A stretch of 64,000 bases of DNA from Raillietiella orientalis (lineage: Eukaryota), in contig JAYWIR010000087.1 of the NCBI GenBank assembly GCA_036172245.1, positions 62,001 through 126,000 of the forward strand, written 5' to 3'. Shown in pieces: positions 1 through 55,741 of this stretch. The notes beneath the pieces were generated by a model. That model had not been told where the DNA came from, made no database searches, and saw only the letters and a program-made list of their open reading frames with translations. A program made the position numbers and the translations under genes. Every line of letters begins with the position of its first letter. Within the stretch, counting starts at the first letter, position 1.

Positions 1-1501
1 GCGCTCCCGGAAACGATGCTTCGCTGCCTATTACAGTGTAATGCACAATGTAAAAAGAGCAGCACATCTTGTTTCCACTTTAAGGGGAACACGGAGCTGT
101 CCAAACAAACGGGGGGAACCACTATCTCTCAGGGGGGCACACTTAAATATTCGCTCCACCGAAGTATACCCTTCGCCCGATTCGGAGGAGCGGCGGCTTA
201 CACCAGCTCCTTTGTCGTCCAACTGCCGAGGAGCTTACTGACTGCCGCCATTTTGCAGGAGAACTCCCATTCCGCCGGTAGACAACCGTGGTTGCTTGCA
301 CTGAGGGCAGACAGCGCTGCGGCGAGTATTGTGGCGGGCAGACGATCCGACAACTTCTTGTCCTGCATGACTTCGTCCATTCGATGACTGAGGAGAAGTC
401 GCAGGCGCCGAAGTTCTTCCGGGCGCGTTCCTTTGGAAGCTGCCTACGATGAAAAACATTCCTGCCGCCATGCATTAATGTTCATAAGGCGGCAGGAGAT
501 CCAGCTTTGGGCTCCCAGTTGTGACGACAGCTGCCTCAGCGGGAAGCCAAACCCTATTCTGGTGTGCCGAAAGTGGGGTAGCAACGACAGCAGTCCCTCG
601 CTTCCCGTGCAGCGCCTCAGTATAAGGCGTGCGGGTAAGTACCACGGCGTTCACTACTGTTTGGCACAGAGGCGCAGTATCCGAAACTGGACCTGCAGTT
701 CGATGCTGTTTAAGTCGAGGATGCCCAAGCCTGCATCCTGACGCGCCGCCACCAAGTCTTTAAGTCTTACGCGGGATCTTGCAGCGCCCCGCAACGCTTT
801 GCGTAAAAGGCGCTGCGCCTAGACTTTGACTTCCTGGGGAGTGGACAAACAAAATACAGGGGGCGGAAGAGGGGGGCAACGTAGGTGTTCCAGATGCAGA
901 CCCGTTCCGGCAAGACGAACTCGCCTTCTGAAAACGGGCCAAGTGCACGCTCTGCCTTCCGAAGGCAGTCCGACCACTCTTCTGTGATGCAGAAGTCGCC
1001 CAACGGCACGCCAAGGTACCTGAGGTACCTGCCCGTGGAAATGCCTAGGTCGATCTAGTCGAACTGCCCTTCCCACGTCGCACCTACCGGAACAACCATA
1101 CACTTACTCCTGTTAACGCTCACGCCCGCACCGAGACGAATCAACTCAAAGTCTTCAAGCGATGTTGCCGGGGTGGACATGGGCAACAGGAGAAGCAGGT
1201 CGTTGGCATAGGCTGCCACGGCCGGCGTACCTGGACAGGATCTCGGCAGGTTGGCTAGCGTCAGCCTGTAAGCCTCCAGCACCAATTCAAAATAGATGCT
1301 GAAGAGCAGCGGGCTTCAGCTATCACCCTGCCCAATTCCTCGTCGTACCGGCACTCCATACACGCGACAGCCACTGAAAACAATGGATGTAATCGCATAG
1401 CGCCAGCAGGAGCGCAAGTTCGCCAACATGGATGTCGGGAGATTCAGACGTTCCAAAAGCTCAAGAAGAAGCTTTTGGTTCACGCAATCGAAAGCTTTGC
1501 G
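1..1501 (-). mobile_element. Decayed L1/Tx1-type LINE ORF2 fragment (family B), RT motif A through thumb and downstream region
   Basis: Minus-strand frames give RKAFDCVNQ, RRGIGQGDS, AAYANDLLLL (degenerate YADD) and WNTYVAPLFRP, broken by stops and frameshifts. Runs off the window start. Confidence 0.9.
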
Positions 1502-2264
1502 CCCTTGCGGTCGCAATTAACTTGCGGAAAGCATTCGATTGCGTCCACTAGAATCTTCTTCTGGTGCTTCTGGAACGCTTGGGCTTCCTGGCCTCTTTAG
1601 TGGCCTATCTGCGCTCCTGCTGCCGCGACGCGCTCATCAACGTTACTTTCAGCGGGCAGTCCGTGTACGGCGTGCCGTTTCGGCGTGGGATACGGCAAAG
1701 AGACAGCCTGAGCCCCTTGCTCTTCAGTACGTACTTTGAGTTGGTACTGAGAGCGTACAGGGGATCTCTGGCGCACCTGCCGCACGATTGTGCCAGTACG
1801 CCGGCCGTTTCAGCGTACGCGGACGACATTCTGCTGCTGCTCCCTATGTCCACCCCGGCTGCGGCGGTCGAGGAGTTCTTCGACCTGCTGCATCGGGGAA
1901 CCGGACTTACGGGGAACAGGGTGAAGTCGTCCGTGATGCCAGTTGGTGCGGCGTGGGCAGGGCAGCAGGACTGGGTCCGTTTGGGGATCCCCACAGAGAG
2001 GTAATTCCAGTACCTTGGTGTGCTGTTGGGAGACTACTCCCCTGCGGAAGCGTGGTCCTGCTGCCTCCAAAAAGTAGAGACGGCGATCGGCCCGTTCCGA
2101 GGCGGCAGGTGTTTGCTGCCTGAACGGGCCGCGGTTTGGAACACGTTCGCGGCTCCTCTCGTCCGCCCCCTGCTTTTTGTTTGCCTCCCCACAGAGAGGA
2201 TTAAAAAGTGGACAAAGGACCTCCTCCGTATCGCAGTAGCATTGGATTTCCATAAAGCATTCGA
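1502..2264 (+). mobile_element. Decayed family B LINE RT fragment
   Basis: AVAINLRKAFDCV, RRGIRQRDSLSPLLF, SAYADDILLLL, FQYLGV. At about 2233 it jumps to a second AVALDFHKAFD segment. Confidence 0.9.
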
Positions 2265-3904
2265 TTTTCACCCGGATTTCGCCTGGGCGTTTATTATAAA
2301 ATAAACATTTAGGAAGACGTGCATTGGCTGGACCATTGCTGCAGCCACGCACGAAGAAACAGAGCCTGCCGAGTCAAAAATTCGCAGACCGCTACGGTCC
2401 ACTACGGCAGCAGGGGGAAGGGTGGAAAACAAAAAAAAAAAACAAAAAGAAAAGAAAAAACTGGAAGGGTACGGGAAGGTATCACAGTTGCTGGTGTGGC
2501 CGTTGCATCCTTTGCAGTATACCGGCAAGCTCTTGCTACCTGCTTAGATCTAGGTGGAACCATCGCGATGCCCTCCTTAGGAACTGGGTAGCTGGCTGGA
2601 TGGCACCCTGGTCGTGTGGTCCTCCCGTAGCCTTGCTCCAGGCTACGACCATCCCGCGAAGGCAGCACAGAGCTGCTAACGAGGCCGCTGGCCGAAGGGC
2701 GTCTGCAACGAAGAGGGCTTTCAGTGCGTTCCTGGGGTCGCCGCAGGGGATTCCGATGGCCGCGGCAAAGCGAAACCAAAGGGGCCGAAGGGCAACACAA
2801 TCCACTAGCAGGTGGGGGAGGGACTCCGGTTTCCCACACCTGACGCAATTGGGGTCCACCGCTCCCCAGGTCCAGTGGTGTCGGCGGGCGTTGCAGGGGA
2901 GTCCCCAGTGCTGCAACAGGAGAGCCGACTGCTGCCGTTTTAAGTGGAGGGTGGAAGTGTTAATGAGCACCGGGGGCCACTTCAGATGTTCAATGGCGAT
3001 TGTGCAGAACCTTCTCGCCAGTACAGGGTGCCACCCGCGCGCTGTTCAATTTCGGCAACTTCCGCATCGGAGATGTAATGCATCTCTTGAAGGGTCGCCA
3101 AGTCGAAGTGTCGCAGGGTGTCTGACACGCCGCGTCTCTATCCGTCCCTGCGCAGCCCGTTGACGTTCCAACAGGCTACTCTGAACCGACGAAGAGAGGC
3201 GACTTCCTGCATTAAGGCTGGGAAGGTGAGCACAGGTTTCTCGCCTTGTCCGGTGACTGGTCACGAGACAGACCGGTCGATCTCAGAGACTGGACATCTC
3301 CATTCGAAGCTGCCCTACTTTTTGATGGAAGCTGAGAGGTGCGACCCATTCCCTCCTCTTTGTTCTCCAGCAACAGTTCCTCTTCGGCAACAACTCGTTT
3401 GCGGGTCTTCGGAAGGCAGTTGCGCGGTTTCGGGCGGGTTACGGGCTGTGTGTTCATTCTGGCGTACTCTGAATCGGAATCCGACAGTCGAGCGCTATCC
3501 AGGTGCTGCTTCTCTTTCCCAAAATTGGGAAAATAATTTGCTGCCTGTTTCTTAGCGCTTTCTGCTATTGCGGGTGTGACTTTTGTTCTTTTAGCCGCAG
3601 CAGCAGCTTCCCGCTCCATCCGCGAGAGCACGACTGCACAGGAGGAAAGGATCGCAATCTTTTTTTCGGGATGGTTTCGCAGGTTCCTTTCGCCCACTCA
3701 CCTTCACACTGAACTGCAAGGACCTCGAGGGTTTCTCTTTAATTTTCTCCCTCACCTGCGTCCAGCCGTCTTCCATCGCGTCGCAGTTCTTTTTGCCATT
3801 TTCAGATGGAGCTGCACCCGCGGATGTAAGAGGAGTTGGCTTGGCTGCCTCTTATGGTGCTGCCTCCGCGCATACGAAAGCCGCGACTCCTTCGGCGATC
3901 GCGA
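2265..3904 (-). mobile_element. 3' part of an antisense family B LINE: ORF1 C-terminus, APE N-terminus, ORF2 C-terminal CCHC finger, 3' UTR
   Basis: ORF1 tail stops at 3212. ORF2 begins MQEVASLRRFRVACWNVNGL...LATLQEMH, then jumps at about 3005 to CVRCGKPESLPHLLVDC. The 3' end AATAAACGCCCAGGCGAAATCCGGGTGAAAA lies at about 2265-2295. Confidence 0.85.
3893..3904 (+). repeat. Left target-site duplication of the U4-LINE tandem (CGGCGATCGCGA)
   Basis: Exact 12-mer repeated at 15323-15334, just after the A-tail of copy 2. The flanks on both sides belong to a minus-strand LINE ORF1. Confidence 0.85.
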
Positions 3905-3905
3905 G

Positions 3906-4045
3906 AGCCTTGCGCACGGGCGGTATCGCCGCCGCTGAACTTTAGGGAGGCGCGATTATTGCTAGTTGAAAACTATACCCAATACCCCGCCAAGGCAGTG
4001 ACTAACCATACTGCCGCGGCAATTTTTGAGTGCCCCAAGAGGGCA
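3906..4045 (+). ncRNA. U4: Full-length U4 snRNA-like sequence (140 nt) forming the 5' leader of LINE copy 1
   Basis: AGCCTTGCGCA start, TATCG..GCC..TGA..GAGGCGCGAT 5' stem-loop/kink-turn, TTATTGCTAGTTGAAAACT U6-pairing region, CCAATACCCCGCC, hairpin GGCAGT/ACTGCC, Sm site AATTTTTGA (4021-4029), terminal hairpin TGCCC/GGGCA. Colinear with the U4 consensus as I recall it. Confidence 0.93.
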
Positions 4046-4168
4046 AGTGTGTGAAGAAAAACAAGTGTGGACATAGTGCAACCGGGGACCATCTTCAGCA
4101 CCAGGAGCACCGAGGAGTCCGCGGTGGAAGACCTGCAGTCGTCCCGAGCAGCAAGACCAGCTGCCAGG

Positions 4169-5959
4169 ATGCAGGCACCGAGAGTGGAGAGGCCGTCGAC
4201 CCCCATGGAAACCATGGAGGTAACGTATGGCAACGGCGAGGAGGTGGAGGCGGCGGCGACGCCGAGGATCGCGCCCGCGGCGGGCTTTGCTGCGCCGACG
4301 GCGGCGATGCCAAGGGTCACGCCCGCGGTGGCGACGGTGGAGGTCGTGCCCGCGGCGGCGACGCCGAGGATCGCGCCCGCGGCGGCAACGGCCGCGCCTG
4401 CGGCGGCGATGCCGAGGGTCCCGCCCGCGGCGGCGGCGGCGGCAACATCGAGGGTTGCGCCCGCGGCGGCGTCCCAGGCGGGACCCGCGGGCGTCCACGC
4501 GGCGAAGGGCGCGCAAGATGCGGCGCCATCTTGCTCGGCTGCGGCATCTCAGCCGTTCTCCTACGCGTCGGTGGCGGCGGGGCAGGTCAGTGTCCACCCG
4601 CCAAGGAAGTTTGGAAAGCCCCTAAGGGGGAAAGTAGAAAGGGTGGACCGTCCGGTTGTCCAGTTAGGCCCGGAGGTAAAACCCATTATGTTTCGCACGG
4701 GGCTGATAAAGTTCAGCAACATTAGGGAAGTTTATCTGTCCCTAGATAAAACGGATTTGGACTTCGATCGCATTCAGGCGATCATTCCAAATAATTCAGG
4801 ATTCACAGTCTTTACAGACTGTGAAAACATCAGGGAGAGGTTGATCCAGAAAGGGATCAACATCCAAGGGAGGATGATCTGTGGTGTCGGCGAGATGCCG
4901 TACACCACGGTGTACATGAGCGGTATTTCCATTTACACGCCACAACTAACAATGTGGAAATACCTTGAACAGTTTGGAGAAGTTCTCGACCTCGAATTCG
5001 AGAACTTCTCTGGAAAAATCTTTTCCGGCGACATGATCGCCAAGATAAAGCTGAAGGAAGGAGCGCAGATTCCCGGGATAGCCGTCATTGACGAACCATC
5101 CCACTGCGTAAATGTACGCTACCGGCAGCAACCGGTATTTTGCACCGTGTGCAAGCAGTTCGGCCATAGGGCCGGCGCTTGCCCTACATCGAGATGCTAC
5201 CGCTGCGGCAAGATTGGGCATCAAGTCCGAAACTGCCCGCAGCCGGAGGTTTGTTCCTTCTGCAAGAAGCACGGACACGCGAAATGGAGCTGTCCGGACT
5301 TCGCAAATTGCAGAAGGATTCGTGGACTCTCTCCCGTGAGAGAGAGGAGTGTGAGGGAGGCGGAACAGCCTCAGAAGATGGCAGGAAGGCCGAAGAAGAC
5401 GAGGGAAGTCGCCCCGGCATCGGCGGACGGCTTCATAGAAGTCGGAAAGAAGGGGAAGAGGAGGATGCTCGTCAAGGAGCAGGAAGCCTCTCTTACCCCA
5501 GAAGTAGCGGAAGAAGGCGAAAAAATGGAGAAGGTACAGGAGGAAGAGAAAGCAGCGAAAGAAGTCACTCCGGAGTCGCAGGAGGCCCTGCAGTCCACCG
5601 AGGAGTTGACGAAGCTTTCAGAAGAAGTGATGGAGGTGCAAAGCGGGCCCCAGCAGGTGCAAATCCTGAAGAAGATCTGCGATGCACAGGAAACTGTGAA
5701 CCAGGTGGTGGAGGTGGCTGAACGAGAGAAGCTGGAGGAACAGCTTCTTGAAGTGAAGGCCAACTTCTGCGCCAAGGTCGAGATAGAGGCTCTATCTCGG
5801 AAACTAATAGCGCGAGCCGAACACTCTACAGAAGAGGCGGAAATAAACGACCTCACTGGGACGGAGAGTGACGCGGCAAGCGATAAACCCGCTCCTTCTT
5901 CAACGTCTGGGAGATCACGCTCTCCCAGACAGAAGAAGCTCAGGAAGGCCAAAAAGTAG
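4169..5959 (+). CDS. LINE ORF1 nucleic-acid-binding protein with three CCHC zinc knuckles
   Basis: Open frame from 4067 (GTG); first ATG at 4169. Ala/Pro-rich N-terminus, SYASVA motif, RRM-like block (YLEQFGEVLDL), CTVCKQFGHRAGAC, CYRCGKIGHQVRNC, CSFCKKHGHAKWSC, acidic coiled-coil-like tail, basic C-terminus. Confidence 0.9.
   Translation: MQAPRVERPSTPMETMEVTYGNGEEVEAAATPRIAPAAGFAAPTAAMPRVTPAVATVEVVPAAATPRIAPAAATAAPAAAMPRVPPAAAAAATSRVAPAAASQAGPAGVHAAKGAQDAAPSCSAAASQPFSYASVAAGQVSVHPPRKFGKPLRGKVERVDRPVVQLGPEVKPIMFRTGLIKFSNIREVYLSLDKTDLDFDRIQAIIPNNSGFTVFTDCENIRERLIQKGINIQGRMICGVGEMPYTTVYMSGISIYTPQLTMWKYLEQFGEVLDLEFENFSGKIFSGDMIAKIKLKEGAQIPGIAVIDEPSHCVNVRYRQQPVFCTVCKQFGHRAGACPTSRCYRCGKIGHQVRNCPQPEVCSFCKKHGHAKWSCPDFANCRRIRGLSPVRERSVREAEQPQKMAGRPKKTREVAPASADGFIEVGKKGKRRMLVKEQEASLTPEVAEEGEKMEKVQEEEKAAKEVTPESQEALQSTEELTKLSEEVMEVQSGPQQVQILKKICDAQETVNQVVEVAEREKLEEQLLEVKANFCAKVEIEALSRKLIARAEHSTEEAEINDLTGTESDAASDKPAPSSTSGRSRSPRQKKLRKAKK
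4249..4490 (+). repeat. GC/CpG-rich coding minisatellite (AAATPRIAPAA-like units) in ORF1
   Basis: Repeated GCGGCGGCGA(C/T)GCCGAGG..CGCGCCC units. The homologous array is at about 9950-10195. Confidence 0.8.
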
Positions 5960-5971
5960 GTCTCCCCCTTT

Positions 5972-8900
5972 ATGGCCTCATACCTATCGACCGCCAGGAG
6001 GCTGAACATCGCCTCCTGGAACGTAAACGGTTTGATCGACCAGACCAAGAGGAAGAGAATCGTGCGGACCATCGCACGACAAGATATCGTCTGCCTGCAG
6101 GAGACCCACAAGATGGGTCTCGAGGTTAGTCAGCGGATGGAACGGCGTTTCAATGGGCAGATGTTTGTCAGCGAGGGAGAACGGAACACGCAGGGTGTGG
6201 CGGTCTTAATCAAGAACCATTTGGCCCCCACTATCCTAGAAGTGTTCTGTCCCTTAGCTGGACGCATCATCGGAGTGCGACTGGCCTGGTCCGCTACTGT
6301 TCACCTTATTTTGCTGAGCGTGTACGGACCACACAGGCTAAAACATCGTTGCGCGGAGTCGCTGCATGCAGCACTCCGGGAAAAGGTCGCGCCCAAGGAC
6401 GTCGTGATCGTCGCTGGCGATCTGAACATCCTGGACGAGATTACACATTCCCAGGACGCCAGAGGAAGGTCGGCGTATCGTCGGCCATCCGACGAGTTCG
6501 GATTGTTGTGGCGAACAGCAAGCCACAAGCCGATCGATCACGTCCTCCATAGCACGGAATTAGGGAATCGTATTCTGGGTTTTCGCGACATACCCACCAC
6601 CCTGTCCGATCACCCGCTGGTGCGTTTGTCCCTAAGGACGGAGAATCCTCGGCGAAAGCAAGGCACCAGGGCAGCGCTCATCAGCATGCCCGTCTGGTTC
6701 GAAACACATCCTGGACATCAGGAGGTCCTAGAGGCGATTCTCACAGCGACTACAATTCGAAGAGTCGCCGACTGGGACAGCCTGAAACACAGGATACACC
6801 TGTTTGCGAATATGCAGTTTGGCGATAGACGATTGAGGCAGGAAGCATACCGGGAGCTGAACATCAAAGATCGCTCACTCTCCAAGTATTTCGAGGAATA
6901 CGAGAGTCGGTATGTCTTCCATAATGTAAAAGGGGAAGTCGGCGTGCTGGAGAAGAGGAATCTGGCAACAGATATCTTCTGCATCCAGTACGCCGATCAA
7001 AGTCGGCACACGTCTGAAGATATTGTAGATGCCTTCGAAAGGCACTATACGGAACATTTTCGACGCGAACACCTGTGTTTGACTGCACAAAACACCTTCC
7101 TGGGCTATTTGGAAAAGAAGATTGACGACCTCCAGCGGAAGAGACTGGAGGAGGATATTACTGAAGAAGAGGTGAAGACTGCGTTCGGTCAATTACGCAA
7201 GGATGTGGCAGCAGGCCCTGATGATGTTCCCATCTCTCATTATCAGAGGTATCTGCATGCCTACCTGCGTTTATTCCACCAGTTGACCCTCTGCATCCGA
7301 CAAGAAGGACGACTGCCGGAGTCCTTCTACGAGAGCAGGACGAGATTATTGCCGAAAGGGGGCGATCTGTCTAGGATAGCACAATGGAGGCCAATCTCGA
7401 TCCTTAACTCGGATGCCAAGTGGTTGGCAAAGATCTGGGCCAACCGCTTAGGCAAAGTAATGTCGAGGCTAATATCTCCTGTCCAGACGTGTGCGGTACC
7501 CGGACGTCACATGCTGGACAATGTCAAGTGCGCGCAGGCTATCGTGGGACTCAGCCGATACGTCGGAGAGAACCTGGTGCTTGCGTTCACTGACATGGAG
7601 AAAGCCTTCGACACCGTCGATCACGGGATGCTGCTGAAGATTCTGGAAAAGCTGGGACTCCCAGAATACTTCAGCATCTTCGTGCGAATGATCCTCCGGA
7701 ATCAACGCTTCCGGATAAAGATCAACGGAGTGGAAACGGCAGTCATTCGGATGGAGCGAGGAGTTCGGCAGGGCGACTCGCTAAGTCCGATGCTGTTCGT
7801 TATCTACATGGAGGCGCTCTCTTCTTTCGTCGAGAAGAACGGACGGATGAAAGGAGTAGAGGTAGACAACCAGAAGCTCACCCATCTAGCATACGCGGAC
7901 GATCTCCTCTTCTTCATAAGAGGAAAGAGGGATCAAGAAACGTTCCTGGACGTGGTGGGCCTTATGAAAGATGGATTGGGCTTAAAAATCAACGCCCAGA
8001 AAAGCCAGCTTTTGCCCGTCGGAATACTGGACCTCTCCACACTCATGGGGAGTGGTTTCCGTACGGTAGATACGGCTAAGTACCTGGGAATCCACATAGG
8101 CGACGACTCTGCGTCGAAGCTGCTGTGGACCGAAATCCTGGGGAAACGGCCAACGAAGCAGCAAAATACACTCGAGAGGACTTTGGGATGAAGCGAAGGG
8201 CCAACCTCTGGAACGGAGTACTCCTTCCAAAGGTACTCTTTGGAGCGGCTTTCGCTAGAATGAACAAAGAAACCTCGAGAGAAGTAGAGAAGCTGCAACG
8301 AAAAACACTGTGGGGCCACTATCGCCCAAGAGTCCGTTTAAAACCCCTGTGTCGTCCCAGGGAAGAGGGCGGTTCCGGGATGAAGTCGCCTGCACACTCC
8401 ATGGAAATCATGGATACGCGACACATACTGGACATAGCCTCCCGCTGGGATGACTGGCCGTATGCAGCACACAGGGCCTACGCGTTGTTGCTAAACAACT
8501 CGAAAGGCCTTATGACTGCGCTGCTAGGCCGAGCAGGAGAGTGGATGTCCATCGACCCAACCTGGAGGAGGAAGCAACGGCTGGTGCGCAAGCACAAAAT
8601 CAAGATCGTGCCGCGAAGCAGGGAACTCTGGCAGGAGGAATCCATCCTGGTGATCCCCTGGATGCTTCCGGTCCCTTCGGACACGAGAAGCTGGATCTAC
8701 CGGCGGCCCGGAGTTACCCTGCAACGAATCCAGGAGTGGAGAAGAGGAGGTTACCTACATCATACTCGTATACTTCGGTATATAGAGATGATGTTAGGAA
8801 GGTACACCCATATGACCCGTGAGGTGTGGATCAACCACAACGATCTCGCGTGGTCTAGGGTAACCAAAATTAACCTCAGAAGACTTATTCGTGAAGATGG

Positions 8901-9488
8901 ACAAGACATCAGTGCCCTCCAAGAAGCAGCCGAACGCTACGGGAGCGATCGCATCAACCTGCTAGCGATTGGCACCACGCTCTGGAGGAGTGACCTTCCG
9001 CCGAAGACCCAGGACGACCTCCTGATGTTTTACCATGGAGGAATCCAAAGTGGGTCTAGACTCCAGTATTTTACCGGAAGACGGGAAGATCAAGACTGCG
9101 TAGCATGTGGAGACACCGACACCAGACTTCATGTCTTGACGTGTCCCACATTGTTACACGACTGGCTGATCCTGAAAGGATCATAGGACTTACCAACAAG
9201 TCCGTTATGGAAATCCTCGCCGGGATGTTTCAGGGAGATGGTAATGTTCCCTGTTACAATCCCATGGTGAGGACGACCATAGCTCTCTTCATCACCGCCA
9301 TACTCGTGCGGTGGTGGAAGATGAGGAAAGCCAGAAGAGCCGCACCTCCGATGGAGATCCTTCAAGGACTCATCAAGAAGGAGATAGGCATCAGGATCTG
9401 TGGACGAATCCATGCCTGGACGTACCGGTTCATCCTGAAGAGGATTGAAGACGACGCCCGGGACCAAGCATCCGGAAACTCACCCTGA
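5972..9488 (+). pseudogene. LINE ORF2 (APE endonuclease, reverse transcriptase, C-terminal CCHC) with two frameshifts
   Basis: WNVNG, LQETH, VYGP, GDLN, IDH, SDH; AAGPDD, LLPKGG, WRPISILN, DMEKAFD, GVRQGDSLSP, YADD, KYLG; CVACGDTDTRLHVLTC. Split over ORFs 5972-8191, 8125-9186 and 9105-9488 (shifts near 8150 and 9178). Confidence 0.93.
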
Positions 9489-9617
9489 TAGCAGAACTTG
9501 AGAAACCCCAGAGACTTCAAAGCGGTAATACAGTGCCAGTGGTATGAATGAGATTGTAGTATGAATGTTATAAAATGAAAAATAAATTTACCCCACCCCT
9601 TGTGGGACTTGGGGAAA

Positions 9618-9738
9618 ATCGCCGCCGCTGAACGAAAGGGAGGCGTGATCATTGCTAGTTTAAAACTATACACAATACCCCGCCAAAGCAGTGTTTAAAA
9701 CCACTGCCAAGCCAATTTTTGAGTGCCCTGAGAGCGCA
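9618..9738 (+). ncRNA. U4: U4 snRNA-like sequence lacking the first 19 nt, leader of LINE copy 2
   Basis: Ungapped match to 3925-4045 with about 20 differences in 121 nt by hand count, many in loops. Sm site AATTTTTGA at 9714-9722. Confidence 0.88.
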
Positions 9739-9864
9739 AGTGTTTGAGTGAACGCCAGTGTGGAAAGAGTGCAACCGGGGACCATCATCAGCAGCAGCAG
9801 CAGCGCCGAGAAGTCCACGGTGGAAGTCCTGCAGTCGTCCCGAGCAGCGGGAACAGCTGCCAGG

Positions 9865-11655
9865 ATGCATGCATCTGCAGTTGGAGGAGTGGTGCGGCCA
9901 TCGTCCCCCATGGAAGCCATGGAGGTAACGTGCGGCAACGGCGAGGTGGCGGCAGGCATACCGAGAATCGCGCCCGCGGCGGGCTTTGCTGCGCCGACGG
10001 CGGCGATGCCAAGGGTCATGCCCGCGGCGACGACGGCGGAGGTCGTGCCCGCGGCGGCGACGCCTAGGATCGTGCCCACGGCGGGGAACGTCGCGCCTGC
10101 GGCGGCGATGCCGAGGGTGCCGCCCGCGGAGGTAACGGCGGCAACGTCGAGGTTTGCGCCCGCGGCGGTGGCGTCCCAGGCGGGACCCGCGGGCGACCAC
10201 GCGGTGCAGTGAGCGACGCCATCTTGTTCGGCTGCGGCGTCGCAGCCCTTTTCTTATGCGTCGGTGGCGGCTGGACAGGCGAGTGTCCACCCACCTAGGA
10301 AATTCGGTAAGCCGCTTAGCGGAAAAGTTCTGAAAGTGGACCGACCAATAGTCGAAATGGGCCCCAGCGTGAAGCCCATTATCTTCAAGACGGGGATAAT
10401 AAAATTTCATAACATCAGGGAGGTCTATTTGTCCCTCGACAAGACGGACATAGACTTTGATCGCATTCAGGCGATCATTCCATGGAACAACGGGTTCACA
10501 GTCTTTACAGACTGTGAAAACATTAGAGAGCGATTGATCCAGAAGAAGATCAATATACAAGGACGGATGGTTTGTGGTATTGGCGAGATGCCATACACAA
10601 CCGTCTTTTTAAACGGCATCTCCATCCTCACATCGCACCTAGCAATGTGGAATTACTTGGAGCAGTTTGGGGAAGTTCTTGACCTTGATTTTCAGAACTT
10701 CTCTGGAAACATATTTTCTGGCGACATGATCGCCATGATGAAGTTGAGGGAGGGAACGGTGATCCCTGGATTGGCCGTTATTGACGAACAATCATAGGGA
10801 GTGAATGTGCGTTACCGGCAACAACCGGTATTCTGCACCAAGTGCAAGCAGTTCGGCCACAGGGCCGGCGCTTGCCCAACGTGTCGTTGTTTCCGCTTCG
10901 GCAAACTAGGACATCAAGCCCGAAACTGCCCGCAGCCGGAGGTGTGCTCCTTCTGCAAGAAACACGGACATGCGAAATGGAGCTGTCCGGAGTTTGAAAA
11001 CTGCAGAAGGATTCGAGGTCTCTCTCCCGTGAGAGAGAGAAACATCAAGGAGGCCGAGAAGACTCAGAAGGCAGGAAGGCAGAAAAAAGTGAAAGAAGCC
11101 GTCCCGGTGTCGGCGGACGGCTTCATAGAAGTGGGAAAGAAGGGAAAGAGGAGGATGCTCGTCAAGGAGCAAGGATCTCCTCAAATCCTGGAAGCACCAG
11201 AGCAGGAAGGCGTGAAGATGGAGGTAGCGCAGGAAGGCGCGAAGGAAGAGAGACAGGAAGCCACTTAAGTGTCGCAGGAAGCTCTGCAGACTACGGAGGA
11301 GTTGGCAACACTGGCGGAGGAGATCATGGAGGTGCAGAGCGGTCCTCAGCAAGAGAAAATCTTGCAGAAGATCTGCACTGCACAAGAGAACATCAACCAG
11401 GAGGTGGAGGTCGCTGAACGCGAGAAGTTAGAGGGACAGCTTCTCGACGTGAAGGCGAACTTCTGCGCCAAGGTCGAAATAGAGGCGCTATCTCGAAAAT
11501 TGATCGCGCAGGCGGAACACTCTACGGAGGAGGCGGAAATTACCGACCTCACAGGTACGGAGAGTGACGCCGGCAGCGAGAAGCCCGCTGCTTCTTCATT
11601 GTCTGGAAGAGCACGCTCTCTCAGACAGAAGAAGCTCAGGAAGGCCAAAAAATAG
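9865..11655 (+). pseudogene. ORF1 of copy 2, interrupted
   Basis: Pieces 9748-10212, 10264-10797, 10801-11268 and 11269-11655 are homologous to copy 1 ORF1, with premature stops. One knuckle is mutated (CFRFGKLGH). Confidence 0.9.
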
Positions 11656-11668
11656 GTCTTCCCCTTTA

Positions 11669-14600
11669 ATGGCCTCTTCCCTATCGACCGCCAGGAGGAT
11701 AAACATCGCCTCCTGGAACGTAAACGGTGTGGTCGACCAGGGAAAAAGAAGAAGGATTGTGCGGACCATCGCACAACAAGACATCGTGTGCCTGCAGGAG
11801 ACCCACAGGATGGGTCTCGAGATAAGCCAGCGAATGGAACGGCGATTCAACGGGCAGATGTTTGTCAACGAAGGAGAACGGAACACGAAGGGTGTGGTGG
11901 TGCTAATAAAGAACCACTTAGCCCTTACTATTCTGGAAGTGTTCCGTCCCCAACCCGGACGAATCATCGGCGTGCGACTGGCCTGGTCCGCAACTGTTCA
12001 CCTTATCCTGGTGAACGTGTACGGCTTGCACATGCTAAAACTTCGTTGTGCGGAGGCGCTGCATGCAACACTCCAGCAAAAGGTCGCCCCTAACGACGTC
12101 GTGATTGTTGCTGGCGATCTCAAAATCTTGGATGAGATCATTCATTCGGAAGACGCCAGAGGAAGGACGGCGTATCGACGGCTATCCGAGGAGTTCGGAC
12201 TGATCTGGCGAACAGCAAGCCACAAGCCAATCGATCACGTCCTGCACAGCACCCAACTTGGGAACCGCATCCAGGGGTTTCGCGACACTATGACTACGGT
12301 GTCCGATCACCCCCTGGTGCGGTTTTCCCTAAGAACGGAGAATCCTCGGCAAGGCAATGCATCAGGGCGGCGCTCATCAGCATGCCCGCCTGGTTCGAAA
12401 CCCATCCCGGATATCAGGCTGTCCTGGAGGCGATTGTGAGGGCAACAACAATCCGAAGAGTCGCCGACTGGGACAGCCTGAAACACAGGACACACCTGTT
12501 TGCGAACATGCAGTTCGGGGATAGGCGCTTGAGGCAAGAGGCGTACCGGGAGCTGAACATCCAAGACCGCTCCCTCTCAAAGTACTTCGATCAATACGAG
12601 AGTCGGTACGTCCTCAATAACATAAAAGGAGAAGTCGGCGTGCTGAAGAAGAGAAATCTGGCAACAGATATCTTGTGCATCCAGTACGATGGCCAAAAGC
12701 GACAGTAGTCTGAGGACATCGTGGATGCCTTTCACAGACATTACACGAAACACTTCAGGCGACAACAGCTGTGTCGCTCTAGTCAACAGGCCTTCTTGAG
12801 CTATCTCGAGAAGAAGACCGACGACCTCCAGCGGAGCAGACTGGAGGAGGAGTTCTCCGAAGAAGAGGTGAAGACTGCGTTTGGGCAACTTCGCAAGGAC
12901 GTGGCAGCGGGCCCTGATTGTGTACCCATCACACACTATCAGCGGTACCTGCACGCCTACCTGCGCTTGTTCCACCAGTTGACCCTCTGCATCCGGGAAG
13001 AAGGCAGACTACCTCAGTCCTTCTACGAGAGTCGGATGAGATTGCTGCCGAAAGGAGGCGACTCTACCCAGATCGCCCAATGGGGGCCAATCTCGATCCG
13101 AAACTTCGATGCCAAGTGGTTGGCGAAGATCTGGTCCAACCGCTTAGGCAAGGTCATGTCGAGGCTGATCTCTCCGGTCCAGACATGTGCAGTCCCAGGA
13201 CGACACATGTCGGACAATGTCAAGTGTGCCCAGGCCACTGTTGGACTCAGTCGATACGTAGGCGAGAACCTGGTGCTGGTGTTCACTGACATGGAGAAGG
13301 CCTTCGACTCCATCGACCACGGGATGCTGCTGTAGGTTCTGGAGAAGCTAGGGCTTCCGGAACAATTCAGCAACTTCGTGAGGGCGGTACTCCAGAACCA
13401 GTACTGCCAGATCAAGATCAACGGCCAGGAGACGGCAGCAATCAGGATGAAACGAGGAGTCCTAAAGGGCGACTTGCTAAGTCCGATGCTGTTCGTCATC
13501 TATATGGAGGCGTTGTCGTCCTTTATCGATAAGAGCGGACGACTAAGCGGGATTACCATCGATAGCCAGCATCCTGCCCATCTGGCATACGCCGATGATC
13601 TACTCTTCTTCATCAAGGGAGAGAAAAATCAGCGTGCGTTTCTGGATGTGGTGGACCTGATGGAACAGGGCTTGGGCTTAAAAATCAATTCCCAGAAGAG
13701 CCAGCATTTGCCCGTCGGAATACTGGATCTCTCCACTCTAACGGGTAGTGGATTCCGTACGGTAGACACGGCCAAGTACCTGGGAGTCTACATCGGCGAC
13801 GGCTCTGCGTCGAAGCTGCTGTGGAAGGAAATCCTGGGGAAAACGGCCAAGGTAGCAGCCAAGTACACCCGAACGGACCTTGGGACTAAGCGAAAGGCCA
13901 ACATATGGAACGGAGTACTCCTTCCGAAAGTGCTCTTCGGGGCGGCCTTCGCGAGGATGAACAAGGACACTACTAGGGAGTTCGACAAGCTGCAAAAAAA
14001 AACACTGTGAGGCCACTATCGCGCAAGAGTAAGACTGAAACACATGTGTCGTTTCATGGAAGAAGGCGGTTCCGGGATGAAGTCGCTTGCACATTCCATG
14101 GAAATCATGGATACGCGACACATCCTGGACATTGCCACTTTCTGGGATGACTGGCCGTATGCGGTGCACAGGGCCTACGCGTTGTTGCTTAACAACTCGA
14201 AAGGCCTGATGATTGCGCTGCTAGGCAAAGTAGGGGAATGGATAACAATCGACCCGACCTGGAGGAGGAAGCAACGGCTGGTGCGGAAACACCAAATCAA
14301 GATCGTGCCGCGAAGCAGGGAACTCTGGCAGGACGAGTCCATCCTGGTGATCCCTTGGTTGCTTCCTGTCCCGGCGGACACGAGAAGCTGGATCTACCAG
14401 CGGTCCAGAGTTACCCTACAGCAAATCCAGGAGTGGAGGCGAGGAGGCTACCTACATCAAAGTCGTATACTTCGGTATACAGAGATGATGTTAGGAAGGT
14501 TTACCCACAGGACACGCGAAGTGTGGTTCAACCACAACGACTTCGCATGGTCGAGGGTAACCAGAACAAACCTCCGAAGGCTTATCCAAGAAAACGACCG

Positions 14601-15201
14601 TGACACCAGTGCCCTCCAGGAAGCCACCGAACGCTACTGGAGTGAACGGTTCAACCTGTTAGCGATCGGCACGACGCTCTGGAGGAGTGACCTTCCGCCG
14701 GGCACCCAGGATGACCTCCTGATGTTTTATCACGGAGGAATCCAGAGTGGGTCCCGATTGCAGCACTTCACAGGAAGACGGGAAGACCGAGACTGCGCAG
14801 CATGTGGAGACGACGACACGAGACTTCACGTCTTGACGTGTCCCACACTGCTGCATGCCTGGCTGATCCTGAAAAGGTTCATAGGACTTACCAACAAGTC
14901 CGTTATGGAGATCCTCGCCGGGATGTTTCATGGGGATGGTAATGTATCCTGTTACAATCCCATGGTGAGGACGACCATAGCCATCTTCATCACCGCCATA
15001 CTTGTGCGGTGGTGGGAAATGAGGAAAGCCAGGAGAGCCGCACCACCGATGGAGATCCTACAAGGGCTCTTGAAGAGGGAAATCGGCATCAGGAACTGCG
15101 GGAAGATCCACGCCTGGACGTACCTATTCATCCTGAAGAGGATCCAGGACGACGCCCGGGACCATCCAGCTGGAATTCCCCCCGGAAAAGCAGAACTCTA
15201 G
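11669..15201 (+). pseudogene. ORF2 of copy 2, interrupted
   Basis: WNVNG, LQETH, SDH, DMEKAFD, YADD, CAACGDDDTRLHVLTC spread over five ORF pieces with stops and a frameshift near 12355. Confidence 0.9.
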
Positions 15202-15322
15202 TGCAACCCAAGGACCCCCAAGTGCAAAATGTTCGTATTGAGTGAATGAGAGTGCGAATGTTAATTTTGTAGTTGTATAGAAAAATAAACTTACCCCACC
15301 CCTTGTGGGACTTGGGAAAACC

Positions 15323-15334
15323 CGGCGATCGCGA
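15323..15334 (+). repeat. Right target-site duplication of the U4-LINE tandem
   Basis: CGGCGATCGCGA, identical to 3893-3904. Confidence 0.85.
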
Positions 15335-16791
15335 AAGGCGCTGCCGCTTCCTGATCGGAGGATTCACGTGTTGTCTTTGCGACCGCTGGGAGCGCTGCTG
15401 TAGCTGTTGAACTCGCCGTAGCAATTTCCTCCGTGACCGCGGTAGGCACTGCGTCCGCGAGCGAGGTGTGCGGGCGTAGCGGTTGTTTTTACGAGGCAGT
15501 CTGCGCCTGGGGCACCTTGGCCGCGGTAGGTTTATCCAGCACGGAGTTCTTTGCTTTCGGGCGCGAATTTCTCGTATCGGGCGAGCAACTGCATTCCTCG
15601 CCACTTGCCCAGGCCTTGATAGGAGGATTTGCGGTCGTGATGCCGACAGTAGGACTCTTCTTGCACTTCGGCGCACTTTCTCCTGCGTTGAAAATTTTCT
15701 GCGAGGTCTCGGTGAGATCTCGCATTGCTCGCGAGCTTCCTTCGGCACGGTAGCCTGAGGCTTCGCCGCGACGCGTTTTTCATGTTTTTCTCCCCTGTTT
15801 TATGGAGAAGAGAAAGAGCTTACTGCGCATGCGCGTTCACGGTTTTCGCAATTCTCTCGGAAGTTTTGAGGTTTTTTTCCCTCGATTCGCGGAGTTTATT
15901 CCGCGATGCGATACGCGCTTCGATCTTGCGCTTTTCGTTTTTCAAAAGCAGCTCCGGGCACGTCTCTTTTGTGTGCCCGAGCTCGTGGCAGTAACGGCAA
16001 GCGGCCGAGGGACACTTCCTAATGCGGTGTCCCTCCTGCCCGCATTCCGCGCACGCAAACGTTTGCCCCGCAAACCACAGGCGGACGGTCATCTCATCCA
16101 CCTGCAGTCGTGCGGGCATTGCCCGGCGATCCGTCATCGTCACTGGCACCTAAGCGTGGTGGTCTTCGAAACCCTTAGCAGGGTTTGGCAACCTCCAAAG
16201 CGCGTGAACGGAGGCGAATTTTTCAAGGGCCTCCATGACCTGGCGGACCGAAAGGCCCTTGCCCACTCCAATCTGTCGGACAACGAACGACTGATCAGTA
16301 GTGAATGGGAGTATTTTCTGCCTACGAATAAGCAGCGGCGTGTGCAGCAAACGCTGCGTAAGGAGAGCGTCCTAAGTAGACACCTCCCAGTAGCCGCACC
16401 CACTCATGGGAATGAGGGACTCCAACTGGCCTCTATAAACTCCAATCCGTTGAAGTTCCTGACCAAACTCGCGTCCAGCACGCTCAGGAATAAGGACATT
16501 TACCTTATACCTAAGTGCAGGTATGTAGCCATTTGCTACATGCAAATGGCTACATGGTCGGGAGAAGGTCCTATTGTAGGCGATAGGGCAGCGATCTTGG
16601 CGGACGTCCTCGCCTTCGGCTAGGACAGTGGCTGCTTGCTAGCAGCCGAAACCGCCATCTCAGGAGCAGGTACCATTTTCTTCTTGCAAGTGATGTTCTT
16701 CTTTGCTCCCATTGCGGCACAGAAGCACTGCAGAACAAAAACACACAAGAGACAGCCTACCGCGGAGGGACGCAAAAGCACGTACGTACGC
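15335..16791 (-). mobile_element. 5' end and ORF1 of the family B LINE interrupted by the U4-LINE tandem
   Basis: 5' motif variant CGTACGTGCTTTTG at about 16774-16790; knuckles CAECGQEGHRIRKC and CRYCHELGHTKETC. ORF1 appears to continue at 3904 downward. Confidence 0.85.
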
Positions 16792-19128
16792 GACCGGCGC
16801 TGATACGGGAGACGAGAGATGTTCCCGTTTCTTTCCGCTCAGCAAAGGTGCCGCTCCTGCCAAAAGGCGGGGATTTGCGCCACCCCAGCAACTGGCGTCC
16901 GATCACCTTGGTGAATTCGGACGTCAAGTTGTTCTCGAAGCTATGGTTCGCGCGGCTGGGGAGAATCGCGCAGTCCTTGGTAAGTCCGGAGTAGACGTAT
17001 GCTGTTCCGGGGCGTTCCATGGATGCGAATCTCTTCTTCGCGCAAACATGGTTCGAGTTGCAGCAGCGCGTGGCGCAGCAGAGCCAGGCAGCTGAAATCG
17101 CCGCTGCCTAAGGTAAGTGGCGGTATTCAAGGCACGATGGAACGCCGAGAGCCTTAGTGGTCGCCGTCGATCTCTGCAAAGCGTTCTAAGCGTAAACCAG
17201 GACCTCCTTCTCGAGATTCTGGGACGCCTAGATCTCCCGACGCACCCCATCGCCTACTTGCGCTCCTGCTGGCGCCACGCGTTATGCTGTATCTCTTCCA
17301 GCGGGCGTCACGTGTACGGCATTCCCATACGGCGGGGTATCAGGCAAGGAGACAGCTTAAGCCCCCTGCTCTTCAGCATCTTCTTTGAGTTGGTGCTGAG
17401 GGCGTACAGGCTGACGCTGGCCAACCTGTCGAGCTTTTGCCCGGGAACACCGGCCGTGGCCGCCTATGCTGACGACCTTCTCCTGCTGCTGCCCATGTCC
17501 ACCCCGGCGTCCAGGCTCGAAGACTTCTTCGAGATCATTCGTCGGGGAGCGGTCCTGAGCGTCAACAGTAGGAAATCAAACGCTGTACCGGTTGGATCTA
17601 CGTGGGAGTGGAATTCCGAGTGGATCCCTCTGGAGATCTCGACGGGCAGGTGCTTTAAGTACCTTGGCGTTCCCTTGAGCGCCTTCTGTCCAGCAGAAGC
17701 GTGGTCGGACTGCCTTCACAAGGCCTAGACTGCTCTGGGTCCGTTCCAAGGCGGCAAGTTCCTTCTGTCGTAACGGGCCTTCGTGTGGAACATTTTCGTT
17801 GCCCCTCTCCTCCTGTCCTATTTTTTGTTTGTCCTTCTCCCTACTCGGCTAAGCGTTGGGAGCAAAGTCTGTTGCGAAACGCCTTGTTGGGACCGGAGAG
17901 TTCCAGGATACGCCTTAAAGTCTTAAGGCTCTTCGGCGGGATGCAGAATTGGGCATCCTGACTCTGGAGCGGATCCGACTGCTAGTGAAGCTCCGCATGC
18001 TGGTACTTTGCGCCCAGCTATGGACTACTCCCTGGTATGCTCCAGCGCGGCTGCTGCTGCGGCGCTGCACGGGTGGAGACGGAATGCGTTCGTTGCACCT
18101 GCGCACGCAGTGCTCCCAGAGAGGATTCGGCTTCCCTTTGAAGCAGCTTGCCACGCTTCTGGGAAAGCATGAGTGGATCTCCTGCCGGCCGACGAACTTC
18201 AACGCCTGGTGGCAGGAAGCCTCATCGTCCTGAGCAGCGCAACAGGATGTGTCCCGTTTGGAACTCCGTTGCGTGAACCGTTTTTCATACTGTCCAGTGG
18301 GGGAGCTGCTTGAAGACCAGGACCAGTGGATACGCCTAGCCGCTACGCCCCTTGCCGAAGCACTGTCTGGAATGATGGTGCAAGACGACAGTGATCTGCC
18401 GGCGAGGTGGGAGATCAGTTGCGAAATCGCAGGCGAAACCCGACTGCTGGGCAGCTGGCGGACTTGCGAGCTGGCAGACGCTGCCACGCCTTGCCTTCGT
18501 GCCAAGGGACTTTTCCGAAGGAGCGAGCTCCGCGGGGTGCCCACCGAAGAACTTGTGGTCCCTTCTGCGTGCTTGGACGCGACTGTGTTCCCCCTACAGT
18601 GCAAACAGGACGCTTTTCTGCTGGAGAATTGGGGTCTCTACTGCGACCAGCGCGAGCACCTGGTTTCCGGGGGAGTTGCGTCCCCGAACCGTGCCAAATA
18701 CGGAGCGATGGATTTGCTTCCGCATATGCTGTTTAAATGCGGTGTCCACCAGGAGCTGTGGCGGTGGCTGTGTACAGGTCTCCTGCACCCCGGACTCATA
18801 ACAATGGATTGGATTCGCCACTTCTTCATTCGTGGCGGTCTTTTTCTTGGAGCGGTTGTCCCATTTATCTGCTGCATCCGCGCCATTTTTGGGGCCCGCC
18901 ACGTATTGCAGATGCGAGTGGTCCCAACATCTGTCCCGACATGGCATCCTGCAACCTGCAACTGGCTGCCGGGTGGCACCACCTTAGAGCAGAAGTGAGG
19001 ACGGAGATCGGCGGCACTCACCGCCAGTTCTGAGAATAGGAACGTTTAAACTGGATATCCCTGTCTTCGCCCTCCCATTTAATTTATTTATTCATTGTGC
19101 GCCCCCCGTCATGATCTGATCTCTCAGT
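16792..19128 (+). mobile_element. Decayed family B ORF2 (RT to C-terminus) and start of 3' UTR
   Basis: LLPKGG, NWRPITLVNSDVK, GIRQGDSLSPLLF, AAYADDLLLL, FKYLGV, degenerate C-terminal finger LPHMLFKC. Confidence 0.9.
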
Positions 19129-20525
19129 GTCAGAGCTCTTCCGCGGCATTTTTGAAGGCCACGTCATCGCTGGTGGCGAAGGTTTCCGCGGGCTCCTCAG
19201 TGACCCTATCGAACGCGGCGTCCTCGCTTTCGACGCGCGAGTCTCGCGTATCACCCTCTAATCCTAGAGTGCGCTCGTCCACGCGAGTTTCGATCGCGTC
19301 CCCGTCAGCTGTTTTGTCAACTTTGTCGCAGGCGGCCTCGGCACGAACGGCTACGCGTTCCAATGCCACCGAGCATTGTCGAAGTTCGGCGCGCGGTGGC
19401 GATTTTTTCTTTTTCGCGACGGTAGCCTTATTCTCCGACTTTTTCTCAACTTTCTTCTTTTTTTCTTCCCTGTCCTTTTTTAGCTTCCAGTCCTCTTCGC
19501 TCTCCGTAATTTCCGAATGTGTTTCCTCGGACACTTGTGTCTGAGGCTGAGGATCTGGAGGCAGTTGCCGGCCATTTTCCGCATTAGGTCTTTCAACCTT
19601 TCTCATGAGTTTCTCCTGTGCCTTTTGGGCAACAGGGGACACAGGGGTAAGGCGCTTAGGGCACACGCGTCGAACGTGGCCTTTCTCCCCGCATAAGTGG
19701 CACACAATGTTCGGGCACCTTTATCTCAGATTCCCTACTGCATTGCAGTACCCACAAAATTAGGGTTTACCCACGAACCAGATGTCTACTGGTTCTTGGC
19801 AGACCTCCAGCTTGTGAGGAAGCGCGCCACCCTGTTTCACCGTGACACGCGCTGCGGTTTGGCCTCCAAAAATGCTATTGTAACCTTCAAAAATCGTAGG
19901 CTGCGGCCACAACGCGTGCACTACACCGTGTTCACGCAACTGATCACCAACCGCTGACCGCTTCATGCGGCTGGTGATCCCGGTGAGATGGACCACTACA
20001 GAGCGGTCCATCGTCACCAGCAAGATCTTCCGACCATCAACGATCAGCGGGTCGGTGAAGAGGCGTTGAGCCAAAGTGATATCTTTGCATATCACCTCGA
20101 CACGCTGACCCCCATTGATAACGGAGAAACCTTCAAGATCTTGCTCTTGAATATTTGCTTTCTGCAGCGCCTTCGAGAAGGCGCGTGCAGTCCGCCCATC
20201 AAATAATGGTCCTACCTTATATATGGGCGAGAGTTTATATCCTGCTGCCCGGTAGGCCATTTGTTCCGCCAAGGCTTCTGCGCTGGGCGCTTCCATCATG
20301 GCGCTCCATGTCTTCGCCTGCTGCGGCGAAGACGATTGCGGGGCTGATGCCCACGATCCAGTAGGCTGTAAGGGAGAACTAGCCTCCTCCACGCCTACTT
20401 CCATCGCGGTGTCCTCTGGCATCGTAGCCATCGGGCACCGGCGATGTGAAAAACCACAAACACTCGTAAAGAAAACTGTCCTCAAGCCTCGCTGAGTAAG
20501 CGACGGAAAAACATGTCCGCTCTCG
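19129..20525 (-). mobile_element. Family B LINE 5' end and ORF1 fragment
   Basis: 5' GAGCGGACATGTTTTTCC; MATMPEDTAMEV...TWSAMM, RRM-like VVVHLTGI...HGVVHAL, knuckle CHLCGEKGHVRRVC. Confidence 0.88.
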
Positions 20526-20539
20526 ACGAGCCGGGATTG

Positions 20540-21270
20540 GGGTAGGTACTCGCAACAAAAGGGCGTATTTATACGCCCGTCGTTAAGCGAGGATCACCAA
20601 CGTCCGTCGCTTGGCCGAATACCGAGCGGGGGCTGAGCGCCAGGGCAAGCACTCCGGGCCTCATACCCTGCTCGACGATTAGGACCGGGAACACTCGGCT
20701 TCTGCCGCGATTCAACACATCGGGAAAGAAGTTTATTCTTCCTTGTACGCCAGGGCGCTTTTGGAGCGGGACGCCTCGCGACTGCTGCTCCTGGACGGAG
20801 CCCCGGCCATAGGGGAGGAAGAGAAGTAAAGTCTCTACGAGCCTTTTATTGCGGTGAAGATTTCACCGCTAAGCACCAGGGGAGGATGGCCTGTCCACGG
20901 AGTTTTTTCAAAGCTTTGTGGCAGAGTCGACCCCCTTGGTGCATAAGTTGACACAGATGATCCGGGATGTAGGCGATGTTCCCGCCTCGCTTCGGTCAGC
21001 CAGAGTGAGGCTTCTTCCGAAAGGGGGAAAACTGAGGGATTTAAAGAACTGGCGTCCGTTCACAGTCATGAACACGGACGTCAAGTTGTTCGAGAAACTG
21101 TGGGCTGCGCGGCTCGGACAGGCATCCAAATCCGTACCTAGCCCGGAGCAGACTTACGCTGTTCCTGGACGAAGTACTGAGGCTAACCTTTTCTTCGCCA
21201 GCACATGGTTTCATGTGCGAAGCGAAGTCAAAGAGAATAAAAGATCTCCGCGGCCTTATTGGGACACGGA
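20540..21270 (+). mobile_element. Family B ORF2 linker and RT N-terminal fragment
   Basis: YSSLYAR, APGEDGL.TEFF, RVRLLPKGG, NWRPFTVMNTDVK, QTYAVPGRS. Confidence 0.85.
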
Positions 21271-22482
21271 CTTTCAGAGGCAGTTCCAAGCGCTCCCGCA
21301 CACGGTTTCCCGTGTGTTTTCCTGGACGCGGAAAAGGACGCAGACGGTCCAGCAGCCTTCATTAAGTGCGTGGCCGCACTCTTGGGCTGCTTCGAAGGGG
21401 ACGATTTGCCCCCAGGGCTGCATGGCATTTTTCCCGCCTGCGCGGCTGTCTGGGATAGTGACTTCCCCAAAACAACCGCGCTCTTTTTTGCGGGACTGCC
21501 ACTCTTTCAAGGTTTGCTCTTCGCGCCCGATTTCTCCCGTTGCCACAACGGGGGATCTTTTCGGCGCGGACGGGGTCGATTGTTGGCGGCTTTTCACCTG
21601 CCGTTTGCGCTTCAGCTCGGCGCACCCTTTAATAAAGTGGCCGAGCTGTTTACAATAGCGGCAGTTGCGAGAAGGGTACGTCCACGGACGGTGGCCCTCT
21701 GCGCCGCAAATGCCGCAAGCCGGTCGCTGACCGTCAAATTTAAGGTGGACGATTGCATCGCTTGCCTGCAATTGCGAAGGCATGTCCCTCCGATGTGCCA
21801 TGGTGACGCGCGCCATGGCAAGTCCGCTGTGAGGAGATGCAATCCTTTTAATGGGATTGTCTGCTTTCCACAGCGCGTGCACCGTGGCGAATGCACTAAG
21901 TGCACCGACGAGCACGCGATCGGGCGTGTCCACCTGGACGGCGGACAATCGGACCACGAACGACTGGTCCATGGCCTACGGGACGACCTTCTTCCTGCGT
22001 AGGTTAAGCGGGGTGCGGAGAAAGCGCTGGACTAGGGATGCCCCTTTATAGTGCACCTCCCAGTGTCCTAGCGCGTTAACAGGCATGACGGCCAGGAGGT
22101 CGTCCTGCAGGACCCCGACGCGCAAAAGCTCGTCGCAGAGAATTTCTACAACCCCGTCGGAGATAGTAACACTCACGGGATAGCAGAGAGCGAGCTTGTA
22201 GCCATGGGCTGCATATGTTGGCAGCTCCGCTTCGTCGGGCGATGCTCCGTTTGCTGCGGTCGCCTTGACGACGTTGGCGAGGCTTCTCGCCGGTGGCGAG
22301 ACATAGGCATCAGACATGCCGAACCTCCGGGGTAGATACTCCGTTGCCCGCTGTAGCCTTCACATCCATCTCCTCTGGCACGGGCGCCGTGGACATTTTA
22401 GCGGACGCACGTAAGCATACCACACGCAAAGAAGACGGAAAGGAATCGAGCTCCCGGAGCAACACTGAACACGTCCGTCCAG
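21271..22482 (-). mobile_element. Family B LINE 5' end and ORF1 fragment
   Basis: 5' GGACGGACGTGTTC; MSTAPVPEEMDV, SLANVV, MDQSFVVRLS, CGICGAEGH, CRYCKQLGHFIKGC. Confidence 0.85.
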
Positions 22483-55740: not shown

Positions 55741-55741
55741 T

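Follow-up and report, generated by a model that had tools for sequence, protein, structure and literature searches.

Exactly two copies of one LINE family lie head to tail, in the same (+) orientation, within the window, the whole 64-kb stretch of DNA that was analysed. Unless stated otherwise, the features described below are on the + strand. Copy 1, the upstream unit of the dimer, extends from 3906 to 9617/9618 and is headed by a U4 snRNA sequence. Copy 2 occupies 9618-15320 and aligns by blastn with nt 20-5712 of copy 1, showing approximately 81.8% identity over 5,728 columns. The 5' head of copy 1 is a complete U4 sequence (3906-4044), which matches RF00015 over the full model (1-138) with 97.9 bits, compared with an Rfam gathering threshold of 46. 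This match stands for U4 sequence and fold and is not proof of a working gene. The rest of the copy-1 5' UTR (4045-4168) is collinear with 9737-9888 of copy 2. ORF1 (4169-5959) is open and encodes 596 aa, with CCHC zinc knuckles (Pfam zf-CCHC, E = 6.7e-6) and a repetitive N-terminus rich in Ala and Pro. In the 5' part of ORF1, 4228-4471 contains tandem repeats of some 100 nt that have diverged to 77% identity and encode the Ala/Pro-rich repeats; matching Ala/Pro-coding repeats are located at 9961-10141 in copy 2.

ORF2 of copy 1 (5972-9503) encodes an APE endonuclease, a reverse transcriptase and a Cys/His C-terminal part; single-A deletions near 8144 and 9181 divide it among three reading frames. 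The N-terminal APE domain (Pfam Exo_endo_phos, 2.5e-18, residues 14-214) is followed by the reverse transcriptase domain (RVT_1, 2e-33, residues 462-709). The Cys/His part scored 15.1 bits (E = 0.039) against zf-RVT PF13966, under the cutoff of 27.5; PF13966 is present in the top database relatives. The closest solved relative of ORF2 is human LINE-1 ORF2p (7e-50), with R2 at 2.1e-23. Database relatives, comprising 29 proteins with E ≤ 0.001 among 7,996 scored, reach an identity of about 30% at most, and the majority of them are unnamed. Based on the ORF2 domains, LINE-1 ORF2p as the best solved relative and the remoteness of the database relatives, we classify the element as a distant L1/Tx1-type LINE with an APE endonuclease and two ORFs, where "Tx1" is a provisional label taken from the original prediction.

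The 3' ends of the two copies are organized alike. An AATAAA (9583-9588) lies about 30 nt ahead of the 3' end of copy 1 and has its counterpart at 15285-15290 in copy 2. The terminal hairpin and tail of copy 1 (ACCCCACCCCTTGTGGGACTTGGGGAAA) span 9590-9617, and the motif is kept in copy 2 at 15294-15320. After each AATAAA, a conserved GC hairpin motif is followed by three or four A; the 3' terminus motif reads GTGGGACTTGGG(G)AAAA. The fold of the tail hairpin was not better than that of shuffled sequences (z = -1.34 and -0.81). Matches to the tail motif in metagenome_contigs (16 loci) and genome_contigs (11) were dismissed as chance, since at all 27 loci the likeness to the element extended over no more than 21-27 bases at the seed.

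Fragments of other LINE families crowd both strands of the window, at 938-3203, 15949-22104, 45578-46666, 50589-54627 and 59278-63680 (tblastn with the ORFs of the element, 25-45% identity). A reverse-transcriptase family is present in four copies, near 1541, 17190, 46134 and 59492. A composite unit of LINE pieces, approximately 5.6-5.9 kb in length, occurs twice in tandem (52672-57766 and 58291-63635) with 65-74% identity and no match to U4 or any other Rfam model. The region 28000-44000 has a lower G+C content (about 0.475, compared with 0.52-0.57 elsewhere) and no match to the proteins of the element, and may be the sole non-LINE part of the window. A permissive-threshold Rfam scan of the window revealed no other U4 or snRNA pieces; the other LINE families there therefore show no snRNA heads.

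The U4 head and the joint between the two copies

The head of copy 2 (9618-9736) begins at U4 nt 20, where the 5' stem-loop starts, and matches RF00015 model positions 20-138 with 48.1 bits when scanned alone. The same part of U4 scores 72.3 bits in copy 1, and this loss of 24 bits, together with the missing nt 1-19, marks the copy-2 head as 5'-shortened and decayed. A full-model match at 9596-9736 gains just 6.8 bits (54.9 compared with 48.1), and we do not claim the tail as a relic of U4 nt 1-19. The heads of copies 1 and 2 are identical at 100 of 120 positions, which is similar to the identity of about 81.6% overall. The joint between U4 and the UTR is common to both copies and collinear in them. 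Since the same head-to-body junction is found in two copies approximately 18% apart, we regard the U4 head as an inherited part of the element.

The two copies differ in a manner typical of coding sequence. The first 8 indels between them, 1 in the 5' UTR and 7 in ORF1, are multiples of 3 throughout. Synonymous differences outnumber non-synonymous ones among the differing codons of ORF1 (140/123) and of two parts of ORF2 (179/137 and 71/60). Because the indels preserve the frame and synonymous differences are at least as frequent as non-synonymous ones, the copies are best understood as members of two lineages that diverged while active. Independent one-off U4 chimeras, which would carry variable joints, are ruled out by the same, collinear U4-to-UTR joint in two such lineages differing by 18%.

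At the inner joint, the A-run of copy 1 directly abuts ATCGCCGCCGCTGAAC (9618-9633), which is identical to 3925-3940, that is, to U4 nt 20-35. The original prediction had been made from this 16-mer and from the divergence of the copies right after it, and both observations were confirmed: ATCGCCGCCGCTGAAC has two exact matches only in the window, a third match having 3 mismatches, and the copies read TTT (3941-3943) and GAA (9634-9636) past it. The predicted end of copy 1 inside U4 at nt 19/20 is likewise fixed by the RF00015 alignment (model 20-138), with the qualification that the last A of the A-run (9615-9618) may also be read as U4 nt 20, placing the break at 19/20 or 20/21. The predicted duplication of about 16 bp fared worse. 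Perfect runs of at least 16 start at 469 of the 5,709 alignment positions between the copies (8.2%), so the 16/16 identity is no proof alone and is indistinguishable from chance identity. Sixteen identical bases followed by three mismatches are compatible with either a short target-site duplication or an annealing tract, for both of which the 16-mer is a candidate. U4 nt 14-25 (GGCGGTATCGCC; window 3919-3930) form a 10-of-12 palindrome, with GGCGGT and ATCGCC on the two sides of the 19/20 break on which it is centred.

Recurrence of the joint was assessed in sequencing contigs. One public run (X1), a single run that is possibly the source sample of the window, contains 74% of the sampled words, and 253 of its contigs match the region at a likeness of at least 80%. 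In one contig (depth 11.8, with 39 letters on its shorter side), 9617 is joined to 3925, and the tail thus runs into nt 20 of a head of the copy-1 type. Another joins 9621 to 3947; here 18 other letters replace the tip of the stem-loop and the 3' UTR is 76 nt shorter (depth 25.9). Three of the four distinct 3' junctions among those listed (2 in the window and 2 in contigs) are located at U4 nt 19/20, and the recurrent break occurs in three different head backgrounds, namely the window and the two contigs. Every U4 junction seen joins an element tail to an element head, where joints are detectable only with both sides on the reference, which biases detection to tail-to-head joints; joints to other flanks would appear as loose ends, of which 10 of 140 were listed. 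The variant head of the contig with depth 25.9 is less U4-like by eye and is probably an element head, not a gene. All U4 sequences seen are element heads, and no genuine U4 gene was seen in this material. Contig depth drops from the 3' end toward the head, as for ordinary 5'-truncating LINEs. Runs X2 and X3 gave one unrelated short match each, and no RNA run was present among the listed holders of the sampled words.

The outer duplication and the order of events

A 12-bp direct repeat, CGGCGATCGCGA, encloses the entire dimer (3905-15322) and marks a site unrelated to U4. The left copy (3893-3904) and the right copy (15323-15334) are exact repeats of each other. A word of at least 12 is shared by 5.7e-4 of 100,000 random 25-mer pairs from the window, an empirical null figure that is itself inflated by repeats in the window. 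The 12-bp repeat is a target-site duplication, and the family is thus able to integrate outside U4. One extra G (3905) is located between the left duplication and U4 nt 1, and two filler bases, CC (15321-15322), separate the A-run of copy 2 from the right duplication. Since the duplication and one G directly precede it, U4 nt 1 is the 5' end of the RNA behind the outer insertion. The extra G may be a copied cap; extra G residues matching m7G occur in retrotransposition products, according to the available part of PMC4038843. The complete U4 (3906-4044) lies inside the outer duplication and hence without a native upstream region.

The surroundings of the insertion provide further information on the landing site. 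The flanks of the dimer at 3009-3203 (- strand) and 15702-16299 are similar, in opposite orientation, to the 5' portion of a LINE family present at 55135-57766 and 61597-63680, and the dimer therefore probably lies inside an older LINE copy of another family. Only weak collinear tblastx matches between the flanks and the related LINE copies (about 55.1-57.8 kb and 61.3-63.7 kb) cross the insertion point, with 28% identity over 53 aa. The outer 12-bp duplication contains a perfect 8-bp palindrome, GCGATCGC. The outer site contains GGCG--ATCGC; in two tests, the latter of which was post hoc, 4.3% and 4.7% of background windows resembled the U4 site equally well. This likeness is a weak hint of residual specificity, comparable to the off-target Utopia copies described in the accessible text of PMC4640811.

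The reading we favour, tentatively, is that copy 2 was inserted first, off target, and that copy 1 then entered at nt 19/20 of the copy-2 U4 head, with its 5' end resolved inside the U4 homology. The transcript of the element would start at nt 1 of a complete U4, carried as the inherited 5' head. As judged from the anatomy, a full-length copy 2 would have retrotransposed into a non-U4 site inside another LINE, leaving as traces the 12-bp target-site duplication and, before U4 nt 1, one extra G, possibly from the cap. Copy 1, belonging to a different and still-active sublineage, would subsequently have integrated into the copy-2 U4 head. In this second step, the endonuclease would nick the bottom strand at U4 nt 19/20, reverse transcription would be primed at the nick, and the upstream U4 DNA would anneal to the cDNA of the copy-1 head, resolving the 5' end within the U4 homology. 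One complete U4 would be rebuilt upstream and U4 nt 20-139 would be left downstream; nt 1-19 (possibly 1-35) of the copy-1 head may thus derive from the original head of copy 2. Repetition of such events would generate head-to-tail arrays with the younger units upstream. Counting against this reading are the position of the one outer insertion observed, which lies outside U4, the absence of genuine U4 genes from this material and the contig depth gradient.

The decay of the two copies bears on their order. Copy 2 carries 6 in-frame stops and 1 frameshift, and copy 1 carries no stop and two single-A deletions in A-runs of ORF2, located, relative to copy 2, near 8144 and at 9174-9181. All 3 contigs covering 9174 have the extra A, and for this reason the copy-1 frameshift at 9174-9181 may be an assembly error. 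In one-sided binomial comparisons, the disabling changes (7 vs 2) gave p of about 0.09, and the stops alone (6 vs 0) about 0.016. The original description of copy 1 as far more intact therefore holds for the stops and has to be tempered for the two ORF2 deletions. The upstream unit looks younger, not decisively. The later insertion of copy 1 into the copy-2 U4 head, which the original prediction had also proposed, draws support from the fixed joint, its recurrence in contigs, the lesser decay of the upstream unit, the inherited U4 head and the start of the outer RNA at U4 nt 1; the 16 identical bases fit it but are no proof alone, and the p of about 0.09 counts against it.

The main alternative, which we consider unlikely, is that a single insertion produced the dimer. 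Having reached the 3' edge of U4 nt 1-19 on a copy-2 RNA, the reverse transcriptase would have halted, switched to the 3' end of a copy-1 RNA and continued to the capped 5' end of this second template. Pairing of nt 1-19 in a helix, for example U4/U6 stem II, could have caused this hypothetical stop, or the RNA could have ended there. One outer duplication enclosing both units and the one-base overlap (A) at the joint are consistent with a jump, as is the position of the joint, at which the separate structural unit of nt 1-19 gives way to the first base of the 5' stem-loop. A fixed stall would likewise yield recurrent junctions, and snRNA template switching by Tx1-type and L1 enzymes is described in the available portions of PMC4494074 and 10.1101/2025.02.02.635956. 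The state of the copies nevertheless weakens this alternative. As the first template, copy 2 should encode the enzyme and the units should be equal in age, yet it is copy 2 that has the 6 stops and the decayed head, and copy 1 that lacks stops. The 16 identical bases past the joint would also be left without a cause (a weak point). If a template jump were the correct explanation, its fixed position at the boundary of U4 nt 1-19 would serve as a natural indicator of how a structured 5' head halts a LINE reverse transcriptase.

Still less probable, in our estimation, is the landing of a ready-made dimer, in which an 11.4-kb read-through RNA starting at U4 nt 1 would have been inserted whole, its joint having already been formed by U4-site integration in a source array, possibly one located at a real U4 gene. 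Such an event fits the single outer duplication and the start at U4 nt 1 behind one extra G, copy 2 could be a defective passenger, and other arrays are present in the same run X1. Transcription would have had to pass the AATAAA and tail of copy 1, a mild objection (AATAAA precedes each tail, which makes read-through past copy 1 less likely), and 11.4 kb would have had to be copied in full length; within the window, this explanation makes no prediction that separates it from sequential insertion. The reverse order is very improbable: for a copy 2 shortened by 19 nt by chance and inserted later between the copy-1 tail and the right duplication, nothing specific speaks beyond the fact that 5' truncation is common in LINEs (compare the contig depth gradient), copy 2 is the more decayed unit, no separate duplication lies between tail and nt 20 and the same break recurs in other contigs, and in-place tandem duplication, considered with it, is ruled out by the divergence of about 18%, the frame-preserving indels and the excess of synonymous change.

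Sequential insertion of copy 2 and then copy 1 can be extended to a broader proposal, which is possible but on the whole doubtful. The element would represent a LINE lineage of U4 genes that nicks at nt 19/20 and whose own U4 head rebuilds a complete U4 behind the external promoter. This promoter would make both U4 and a read-through, capped element RNA, and off-target copies would serve as landing pads on which arrays form. Genuine U4 genes as the normal target, with their promoter driving the element, are an extrapolation, as is the restoration of the target by insertion. If the proposal is true, the gene struck by an insertion would be mended, the element would rely on a promoter external to itself, and it would offer a compact system of sequence-specific endonuclease and reverse transcriptase for a small conserved site.

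Comparison with known target-specific and snRNA-linked elements

Target-specific LINEs are known for rRNA, 5S, U2, telomeres and microsatellites. Among the papers searchable, none lists U4 as a target or describes an autonomous LINE that has inherited a complete snRNA as its head. Literature searches on U4 with retrotransposon and non-LTR terms, with Repbase Reports and subscription journals outside their scope, returned no paper on a U4-targeting or U4-headed LINE. At the level of sequence, what is new here is that an autonomous LINE possesses a complete, inherited U4 head and that the break at U4 nt 19/20 recurs.

Transposons targeting snRNA genes are limited, in the available text of PMC4640811, to Keno and Utopia (U2), Dada-U1 and Dada-U6. 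The systems closest to the present one are Keno (Tx1 clade, APE-type) and Utopia (RLE-type), whose 3' ends both adjoin one fixed position of U2 (PMC4640811, available text), as may hold for the present element at U4. Occasional tandems and occasional off-target inserts at partly target-like sites are described for them as well, as observed here (same source). The present case differs in that the snRNA is U4 and not U2, the whole snRNA is carried as a 5' head, and it is seen only in element heads, not in genuine U4 genes.

R2 and R1 of the rRNA genes, which are co-transcribed with their target, interrupt that gene and bring along no more than a short stretch of upstream sequence. The head of the present element, in contrast, comprises the complete gene, and thus also the portion that lies downstream of the break. 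The idea common to both is that target sequence at the 5' end of the RNA anneals the cDNA to the upstream target and yields a seamless 5' joint, as mentioned in PMC4494074, which cites Eickbush 2000 and Fujimoto 2004. Mutsu, a Tx1-clade family of 5S rRNA genes, has subfamily-specific sites in a small multicopy RNA gene and a 5'-shortened gene remnant directly downstream (PMC5340908, as far as its text is available). Mutsu differs in its target, a Pol III gene arranged in long arrays, and that text does not describe the element as containing a complete copy of the gene.

Chimeras of U6 and other snRNAs with LINE-1 place a sense, full-length snRNA 5' of the LINE inside one target-site duplication, as at this locus (10.1101/2025.02.02.635956, available sections). 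These chimeras differ in that they are one-off products with a 5'-truncated L1 and variable joints according to those sections, whereas the U4-to-UTR joint here is heritable, being common to lineages 18% apart.

SINEU and Tx1-Mar of crocodilians (Kojima 2015, PMC4494074) also carry snRNA-derived 5' heads, from U1 or U2, without an internal promoter, and form sequential tandem insertions around a shared target, as described in the accessible text. Flank-driven transcription and co-transcription with the target are discussed there as aids to specificity. Transcription of a snRNA-headed retroposon, a question left open for SINEU in the same text, would be explained if the U4 head is indeed rebuilt behind an external promoter. 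In that account, the elements with such heads are short and have no coding capacity, a Mariner transposon is their target, and template switching added the heads repeatedly (PMC4494074). Here, by contrast, the element is an autonomous two-ORF LINE, the U4 head is inherited, and the break falls within that head.
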